This document shows positions 14,200-15,323 of a stretch of DNA of 25,290 bases, in pieces; position 1 is the first letter of the stretch, and each line of letters opens with the position of its first letter. The translations under genes were made by a program, and so were the position numbers. The DNA comes from Candidatus Methylomirabilales bacterium (GTDB lineage: Bacteria > Methylomirabilota > Methylomirabilia > Methylomirabilales > CSP1-5). The stretch is from contig JBHIAH010000036.1 of the NCBI GenBank assembly GCA_046758505.1, positions 1 to 25,290 on the forward strand, written 5' to 3'. The notes under the pieces were generated by a model. It was not told where the DNA came from. It made no database searches and saw nothing but the letters and a program-made list of their open reading frames with translations.

Positions 14200-14228
14200 A
14201 TGCTAAAGAAGAGCAGCGGCCTTGTCAA
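14200..14228 (-). promoter_or_regulatory. Putative sigma70 promoter of the TPR-YqgE unit
   Basis: Minus strand TTGACA (14228-14223)-17 nt-TAGCAT (14205-14200). Confidence 0.7.
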
Positions 14229-14341: not shown

Positions 14342-15004
14342 ATGATTCAGATGTTTCATGTCTCCAAGATCTATCCAAAGGAGGTGGTGGCCCTCTCGGA
14401 CATCACCCTCCACATCCAGAAGGGGGAATTCGTCTACCTCTGTGGCCCAAGCGGCGCCGGAAAAACCACCCTCCTGCGCCTCGTCTTTCGGGATGAACTG
14501 CCCACCTCCGGCCAGATTCTGGTGAACGGCCGCAATGTCGTCCGGCTTCGGGAGAGCAAGCTGCCATCCCTGCGGCGCAGCATCGGCGTGATCTTCCAGG
14601 ATTTCAAACTCCTCATGGACCGGAGCGTGTACGACAATCTCCACCTGGTCACCCGGGTCCTGGGAATCCCGGAGGCCATCAGCCGGCGCAAGATCGGCCG
14701 CCTCCTGAAAGAGGTCGGCCTGCTCCAGAAGGCCGATCAGATTCCCTACAAGTTGTCAGGCGGGGAGCAGCAGCGGGTCGCCATCGCCAGGGCCCTGATG
14801 AGCGACCCGGCGATCCTCCTGGCGGATGAGCCGACCGGGAACCTCGATCCGGATCTCGCCCTGGACGTCATGCGCCTCTTGGGGGAGGTGAACATCCGCG
14901 GGACCACGGTGGTCGTGGCCACCCACAACCCCAAGCTCGTCTCCGAGATGGGTCACCGCACCCTCGTGCTGAAGCACGGACGCCTGGTGGAGGAGATCCC
15001 GTAA
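14342..15004 (+). CDS. ftsE: Cell division ATP-binding protein FtsE
   Basis: [11 protein letters not shown], Walker [46 protein letters not shown] and VATH. Lies upstream of ftsX. Confidence 0.95.
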
Positions 15005-15323
15005 TGCCGTTCCAACTATTCACGCCAACCCGGAGAAACTGATGCACTACACCTACGCGCTGGTGAGCCAACCGGACAAGAGGATCTCCACAGGCAGCAC
15101 CAAAGACCTTCGGAATAGGGTCCGTGAACACGCGGAAGGTCGCATCCGCTCAACTGCATACCGACGACCCGTGACGCTAATCTACTACAAGGCTTGCCTG
15201 AGTGCCGACGATGCCTTGCGCAGGGAGCGATTCCTCATGACCGGTAAGGGGAAGCGTTACCTACGCCACCGCCTCACTTCCTTCTTCGCAGGCATTCGGG
15301 ACAAGAAGTTGGAACGGTACTAA
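15002..15323. mobile_element. Putative inverted-repeat-bounded GIY-YIG cassette inserted between ftsE and ftsX
   Basis: Left end TAATGCCGTTCCAACT (15002-15017) matches the reverse complement of AGTTGGAACGGTACTA (15307-15322) at 14/16, with an 11-bp perfect core. TAA occurs at both ends (15002-15004 and 15321-15323). Confidence 0.6.
15042..15323 (+). CDS. Small stand-alone GIY-YIG nuclease family protein (possibly degenerate)
   Basis: YTYAL.S...(S)TGST.DL..R..EH..G...ST..RRP..LIYY.AC....A.RRE.FL.TG.G pattern. RBS GGAG upstream. Confidence 0.85.
   Translation: MHYTYALVSQPDKRISTGSTKDLRNRVREHAEGRIRSTAYRRPVTLIYYKACLSADDALRRERFLMTGKGKRYLRHRLTSFFAGIRDKKLERY

Follow-up and report, generated by a model that had tools for sequence, protein, structure and literature searches.

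The 107-bp RUP element of S. pneumoniae was assigned to IS630-Spn1 on the basis of shared ends and a TA target, and the Correia/NEMIS element, also of 107 bp, is an IS630-family MITE (both from excerpts of PMC2229807). Ssn nucleases are GIY-YIG proteins that cleave single-stranded DNA site-specifically and are bracketed by a genome-dispersed repeat (NTS/SRM), and the excerpted account remarks on their IS-like architecture and leaves open both the mobility of repeat-flanked GIY-YIG genes and what moves them (PMC11893778). In TIRtrons (TIRYT), a small nuclease gene lies between terminal inverted repeats that also form dispersed repeat families, which occur in Acidobacteria among others (PMC3733652, in part), and stand-alone Slx1-like GIY-YIG proteins are described, in the portion of PMC1564403 concerned, without inverted repeats. 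Full-text literature searches, which covered few subscription journals, listed no account of a GIY-YIG cassette with IS630 ends. A comparable arrangement is that of TnpB/Fanzor accessory nucleases and of passenger-carrying IS derivatives (tIS, MIC), in which a nuclease rides an element that is moved by another enzyme.

Here we describe a cassette of 321 bases, a real mobile element, which lies at the ftsE-ftsX junction of a 25,290-nucleotide stretch of DNA (the window) and whose sole gene encodes a small GIY-YIG nuclease. The cassette resembles RUP and Correia/NEMIS in having TA-flanked terminal inverted repeats in common with IS630, and short members of about 106 bp; it differs from RUP-type MITEs, as far as the excerpts describe them, in that the long member bears an intact, selected nuclease gene whose stop lies in the repeat, the short members have very diverse interiors, and four phyla are spanned. 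The likeness to the Ssn system, on the excerpted description, lies in a single-domain GIY-YIG protein (about 94 aa there; the cassette protein conforms to the ~95-aa pattern), a similar Tyr-Tyr-Glu spacing and bracketing by a genome-dispersed repeat. In contrast to Ssn/SRM, the cassette ends are a single pair of inverted arms without local folding, TA is duplicated at the target, and a DDE transposon with the same ends exists; the hairpin-forming flanking repeats of 20-50 nt that mark that system were not found in the 45-nt ends of 36 cassettes. The cargo of TIRtrons is, in the sections concerned, a HUH tyrosine transposase, whereas Pfam finds GIY-YIG only in the cassette, and 'GIY' occurs 0 times in the main text of the TIRtron paper (PMC3733652). 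The cassette is neither a TIRtron nor a single-site homing element. From TnpB/Fanzor, tIS and MIC it is set apart by a different fold, a total length of about 320 bp and the lack of any guide RNA in Rfam searches.

The cassette at the ftsE-ftsX junction

The features of the locus are as follows (window coordinates):

14342..15004, plus strand: ftsE, cell-division ABC ATPase (TIGR02673, 284 bits, above cut-off)
15002..15003, no strand: left copy of the duplicated TA target (from family flanks cTA...TAg and empty alleles)
15002..15017, plus strand: left terminal inverted repeat, differing from the family end at one position
15024..15028, plus strand: sub-terminal motif, weakly conserved (end consensus)
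15032..15035, plus strand: putative Shine-Dalgarno-like GGAG, 6 nt 5' of the GIY-YIG start
15042..15323, plus strand: GIY-YIG ORF, 93 aa, UPF0213/SLX1-like group (PF01541, E 2.4e-11)
15307..15322, minus strand: right terminal inverted repeat, encoding LERY and the stop of the GIY-YIG ORF
15321..15322, no strand: right copy of the duplicated TA target, the first two bases of the GIY-YIG stop codon
15327..16229, plus strand: ftsX (PF18075 and PF02687)

An earlier note on this DNA had proposed that 16-bp inverted repeats bound the GIY-YIG gene and that the cassette starts on the ftsE stop codon. Both proposals are borne out: the arms at 15002-15017 and 15307-15322 are complementary at 14 of 16 positions with a perfect 11-nt core, and the left arm, the left end of the cassette, begins on that stop. 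Within 1.5 kb there are 31 inverted repeats, this pair among them, and the significance of the pair therefore rests on the family (see below). The single change in the left repeat retains a stop codon; the motif at 15024..15028 is common to cassettes, short elements and IS630 ends, and the GGAG is also retained in the cassette remnants of two further genomes (G011 and G003). A gap of 3 nt separates the cassette stop from the ftsX ATG, just as it separates the ftsE stop from that ATG in empty alleles; the empty junction that the note predicted (stop, 3 nt, ftsX ATG) occurs in 11 of 13 same-genus genomes. The suggested duplication of TAA did not hold: family flanks show instead that TA is duplicated, inside a CTAG-type target. 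The semblance of a duplicated TAA arises because the left end has A in place of G at its first base, together with the host's next base.

Pfam detects only PF01541 in the ORF, and there is no transposase gene in the cassette. No structured RNA matched Rfam at E<=1 across seven loci and no guide RNA was found; whole-cassette folding is no better than that of shuffles (z -0.86), and the ends of the 36 cassettes form no local hairpins (median z +0.75 and +0.09 vs shuffles). A sigma-70-like site (10/12) lies at 14200-14228 on the minus strand, upstream of a TPR gene divergent from ftsE. Named loci of related elements point to Methylomirabilota as the probable phylum of the host. The four runs that contain window DNA (X1-X4) are hydrothermal-vent metagenomes, with no RNA run among those listed. 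Excision in the host population, for which the note proposed a check of reads, gained no support: in 4/4 runs the filled site is crossed by host contigs that show no differences, these contigs coming from one study that is possibly the source of the data. At 85% likeness a joint that skips 15002-15320 was seen, but it was absent at 88% and hence derives from a relative.

A family of cassettes and short elements in CTAG sites

A protein search with the window nuclease gave 81 matches at E<=1e-20, most of them exactly 93 aa long and with a terminal KLERH, the translation of the repeat. Same-type ends lie on both sides of the gene at 36 of the best 80 of 561 GTDB loci, distributed over Acidobacteriota, Gemmatimonadota, Methylomirabilota and Nitrospirota, vs 0/1145 control windows; with the empty alleles, this rules out a chance repeat. 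Both ends of other types were seen at 27 further loci of the best 80, a count that is circular since the end patterns were read from the same loci. Type-A ends all fall within one protein-tree group of 42 (support 90/90), and other clades have other ends. Cassettes are mostly 306-325 bp long, the neighbours of the 35 that were compared are unrelated, and several loci occur per genome. The mobility proposed in the note is evident from the empty alleles and from copies that are 97-99% identical, with boundaries exactly at the ends, at unrelated loci. In some genomes movement is recent: L163 and L167, on different contigs, are 99.4% identical over exactly the element, and G231 holds at least 7 cassette copies at 97-99% identity.

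In the window's own genome (G000), about 20 elements have both of these ends; most are 105-106 bp long, and only the one at ftsE-ftsX holds a GIY-YIG gene:

Short same-ended elements: C1:138301, C2:87294, C3:103036, C6:3840, C13:31434
Short same-ended elements: C14:14309, C32:18385, C41:17592, C47:12311, C48:3152
Short same-ended elements: C51:12285, C62:7182, C81:10583, C126:2142
Longer elements, 211-246 bp: C14:24309-24519, C38:370-615, C42:21928-22148, C61:2549-2792

Thirteen of the 14 short elements listed are 105-106 bp long and several have unrelated interiors; a length that is conserved while the interior varies freely suggests that the distance between the ends is constrained. The longer elements have other repeats inside and, in three, variant ends. 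Overall, short elements measure 88-110 bp with a peak at 105-107 bp, and some are internal deletions of the cassette. At least 122 metagenome loci carry an exact end (43 with short flanks); most of their elements are 105-107 bp, and GIY-YIG sequence is present in 7 of the 122 listed. G231, whose marker completeness is 100%, shows 362 end matches and about 170 copies of an 88-bp element that is an internal deletion of the resident cassette, nine sampled copies differing at 0-2 bases.

Several further arrangements were observed. In G231 (L479-L498, L578-L617), an internal CTAG permits nesting, which gives 25-bp tandem repeats (L488, L489). In G263 (L443-L472), a related end type is matched 207 times; its elements are mostly 195 bp long, an intact GIY-YIG cassette is present as well, and the four DDE_3 elements of this genome bear other ends. 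Sister GIY-YIG genes of 84-89 aa in CPR, Planctomycetota, Bacteroidota and others (L150-L199; L421-L426 in G069) are bounded by a different end type, again containing a stop codon, which also forms hairpins of 46-56 bp, short for a transposase substrate; no transposase was found for the ends of these sister clades. Viral contigs gave 56 single matches and one paired short element, with no nuclease or transposase match. At L327:242-520, a fragment after one end tentatively resembles, by motif, the C-terminus of a REP-associated tyrosine transposase.

Family ends read cTA-GTGCC...GGCAC-TAg, the base 5' of the left TA being C, and that 3' of the right TA being G, in 32/35 cassettes each, which identifies the duplication as the TA within a CTAG-type target. 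CTAG is rare in G000 (1419 sites vs ~10,200 expected), and 13/19 elements of this genome begin on a gene stop codon vs 371/1419 other CTAG sites (26%); in G231, 29/39 elements with full flanks (41 examined) are on stop codons. The note's preference for stop-codon junctions is thus real, but its restriction to essential operons is not: the neighbours, 11/12 of them annotated, include the RodA/FtsW, EF-G and ribonucleotide reductase families as well as AcrB, MOFRL, TrkH, TctB and HbpS-like families, so that housekeeping and accessory functions are mixed. Selection acting on insertions is a probable contributor to the bias, and active targeting may be another. Selection alone was considered as its cause and is not sufficient, stops accounting for 24% of CTAG sites outside genes vs 13/19 elements (p=5e-5, on crude gene calls covering only 80% of the genome).

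The nuclease, the IS630 ends and the mover

The predicted structure of the protein is a lone GIY-YIG domain (pLDDT 88). Foldseek ranks UPF0213 and Slx1 highest, though no match reaches E<=0.001; by sequence profile, UPF0213 is matched at 2.8e-8. The C-terminal motif is one that we take to resemble cd10449 and not cd10448, the Ssn class. Stand-alone small GIY-YIG genes are numerous, with 2,653 clusters (50% identity) at E<=1e-10 with this profile. The window copy departs from the core residues of the family at A6, S16, I35, K50 and M66, including Y16S, and is predicted to be inactive because Y16, which is likely catalytic, is lost; in SsnA, the equivalent change Y17A abolishes cutting (PMC11893778, excerpt). 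The window copy is thus a decaying, probably inactive member of the family.

Selection on the gene runs in opposite directions between and within genomes. Between lineages, 27 ORFs (93-aa members only, first 78 codons, a sample biased toward intact ORFs) gave a median pS of 0.72, a median pN of 0.27 and a median dN/dS of 0.21 over the 151 unsaturated of 351 pairs. Within genomes, there are 19 non-synonymous changes to 1 synonymous among 10 copies in G231 (3 of them partial and without changes) and 18 to 2 among 3 copies in G071, pooled 37 to 3 (p=0.004 vs neutral). All 7 longest G231 copies have amino-acid changes, and the majority in G231 retains all eight core residues checked (Y5, Y16, G18, R26, H30, R41, E50 and E62). 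The opposite selection marks the gene as selfish: the cassette looks selfish rather than useful to the host, in keeping with the character that the note had ascribed to it. On the pattern of these two genomes, an active nuclease may aid the spread of founders and be selected against once resident.

The ends themselves are not confined to cassettes. At 1 of the 122 listed metagenome loci (L371), the exact end abuts an IS630 DDE ORF, and close relatives of this fragment occur in 5/251 genomes of the window's phylum. Four of these phylum elements, in a census of fetched regions, have both ends, are 1153-1162 bp long with cTA...TAg flanks, and differ from the family end by 1-2 mismatches in 15 nt; exact end matches among IS630 are limited to L371 and, in genomes, L418. 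Three of the four read out as two overlapping ORFs (HTH and DDE_3 by Pfam in two of the three), and the DDE ORFs terminate in KL(E/D)(R/Q)H inside the repeat, like the cassette ORF. Other IS630 elements of these genomes lie in cTAG as well. Relatives also occur in 2/301 genomes of the phylum of G062, and one further relative is a protein named from Acidobacteria. A first screen with NF033545 had returned only IS630 with other ends, the two-ORF subfamily not being among the loci examined. In L407, L409 and L411, the two ORFs overlap at an A-run, which is likely a programmed frameshift, and close homologues in the protein collection are DDE halves only (~190-250 aa). G062 (L225-L249) has two multi-copy elements of 1.35-1.40 kb, >99% identical, with a weak NF033545 match by the N-terminus.

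Mobility, the TA-in-CTAG target, ends shared with IS630 and with short elements, and opposite selection are established. The note's idea of movement free of any transposase fits poorly with these data: the cassette is not transposase-independent on its face, since full-length IS630-type transposons with two ORFs share its ends and target in the same phylum, and copies with a damaged nuclease have moved (L163 and L167 share five core substitutions). We consider it somewhat probable that the cassette is a non-autonomous derivative of IS630 and that its nuclease is selfish and accessory. The transposase of a same-ended IS630, acting in trans, would then likely cut and paste the cassette into the TA of CTAG, a reading that follows the same-ends argument by which RUP was assigned to IS630-Spn1. 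The nuclease would likely promote the spread of the cassette at a cost to the host, in an accessory role, for instance by cleaving element-end DNA or the site left vacant, and gap repair after such cutting would add copies in a TnpB-like manner. Because the ORF stop lies within the right repeat, insertion into a stop codon would rebuild the host stop and also provide a new one, as far from the next start as the old one had been; translation of ftsX would remain coupled, and the insertion would hence be tolerated.

The sequence features of such a derivative were found, but co-occurrence with its helper was not. Same-ended IS630 was found in 0/25 element-bearing assemblies, all metagenome bins, by profiles of both IS630 ORFs (positive control G158: 1e-112 and 1e-106). 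Metagenome bins frequently lose IS elements. G231 gave no PF13358 (DDE_3) match despite its 362 end matches, and G061, G062 and G264 have no same-ended IS630 despite long contigs. Conversely, the 5 genomes with same-ended IS630 have almost no short elements. Full cassettes occur in 4/20 element-rich genomes of the phylum vs 2/231 others (Fisher p=4e-4, kin not being independent), and same-ended IS630 in 0/20 vs 5/231, where only 0.4 overlaps are expected. Co-occurrence with the elements thus leans toward the nuclease over IS630 as the helper, without settling the matter, and absence of a helper does not discriminate, since G225, G239 and G038 are element-rich, with 35-60 exact ends, and neither IS630 nor GIY-YIG helper was found in them.

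Given the absence of a matching IS630 from the 25 assemblies, a self-mobilising role of the GIY-YIG protein is still in play. In its broad form, the 93-aa protein would be the mobilising enzyme, or an obligatory partner, of cross-phylum transposons of ~300 bp and their MITEs, having taken over IS630 ends, favouring stop codons and being toxic enough for hosts to select its inactivation; taken jointly, we regard this as doubtful. More narrowly, the protein itself would recognise the ends and copy the cassette and its short derivatives into CTAG with host repair enzymes, IS630 and the cassette merely sharing, or having swapped, ends. This is unlikely in our view, although element-rich genomes have cassettes or cassette-derived deletions and no matching IS630, the G231 short element being an internal deletion of the resident cassette. 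End type also tracks the protein tree (type-A all in the group of 42), purifying selection between lineages fits a transposase, and in the Ssn precedent, as excerpted, a 94-aa GIY-YIG protein sequence-specifically recognises its flanking repeat (PMC11893778). Against it, ends, target and C-terminal overlap match those of a real DDE transposon, the ends lack local hairpin folding, and the three genomes with 35-60 exact ends have neither helper. Moreover, we know of no strand-transfer or joining chemistry for the GIY-YIG fold.

It is improbable that an IS630 MITE captured the GIY-YIG gene as a plain passenger, one that is neutral for the host or benefits it in repair or defence. The ends in common with IS630, the conservation of the protein across phyla and its similarity to UPF0213 and Slx1 proteins would agree with such a capture; a dN/dS of 0.2 between lineages is unexpected for a neutral passenger, however, and the amino-acid changes in all 7 longest G231 copies, an excess over neutral that is significant when pooled with G071, also argue against such a passenger.

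History of the ftsE-ftsX site

G011 retains a 130-nt cassette remnant at ftsE-ftsX and G003 a 118-nt one. Filled alleles form no clade, G011 being nested among four empty genomes and 1.8% from G004, and a second organism, present in all four runs X1-X4, is also filled at the ftsE stop. The left stop of G011 is TGA, as in its empty sisters, which is not expected from a fresh TA insertion and favours an old occupant. However, the G011 remnant shows 0/9 four-fold differences from the window vs 0.37 in the ftsE-ftsX flanks (p=0.015), which favours a younger one. The G003 remnant has diverged as much as its flanks (4/7), and the second organism has at most ~8 synonymous differences over 68 sites, a bound from partial difference lists. 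Co-conversion of the flanks was not visible, though in two lineages the insert seems to be of more recent origin than the flanks. An old site with interior turnover and repeated precise loss would fit these data, as would repeated insertion, the two being inseparable here. In the second organism (P0003; window 15114), a short same-ended element is nested in frame inside the GIY-YIG gene and adds 34 aa, and L015, from another genus (G014), has a degenerate left end at the ftsE stop and no right end.

A homing endonuclease cassette specific to ftsE-ftsX or stop-codon junctions, spreading by cutting empty alleles, would account for filled sites in non-sister lineages and for the low divergence of the insert in G011 and the second organism, but it is highly improbable given the 35 compared cassettes among unrelated neighbours, not confined to one cognate site, the lack of visible flank co-conversion, a G003 remnant as diverged as its flanks and a protein that is a lone 93-aa nuclease domain.

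All three indel derivatives at the site (the G011 deletion, the G003 deletion and a 102-nt insertion) preserve the frame of the ORF; in G011 and G003 it stops 3 nt short of the ftsX start, and the derivative with the insertion aligns ungapped through the junction. An intact frame in three of three cases would arise by chance once in 27, a hint of selection for translational coupling, and these derivatives suggest how the element can persist within a cell-division operon. The family provides a defined test set, with a cassette and its short derivatives, a transposase that shares their ends, a target of 4 bp and a site known in its empty state, and a three-way comparison could separate a passenger, an accessory nuclease and a new kind of transposase.
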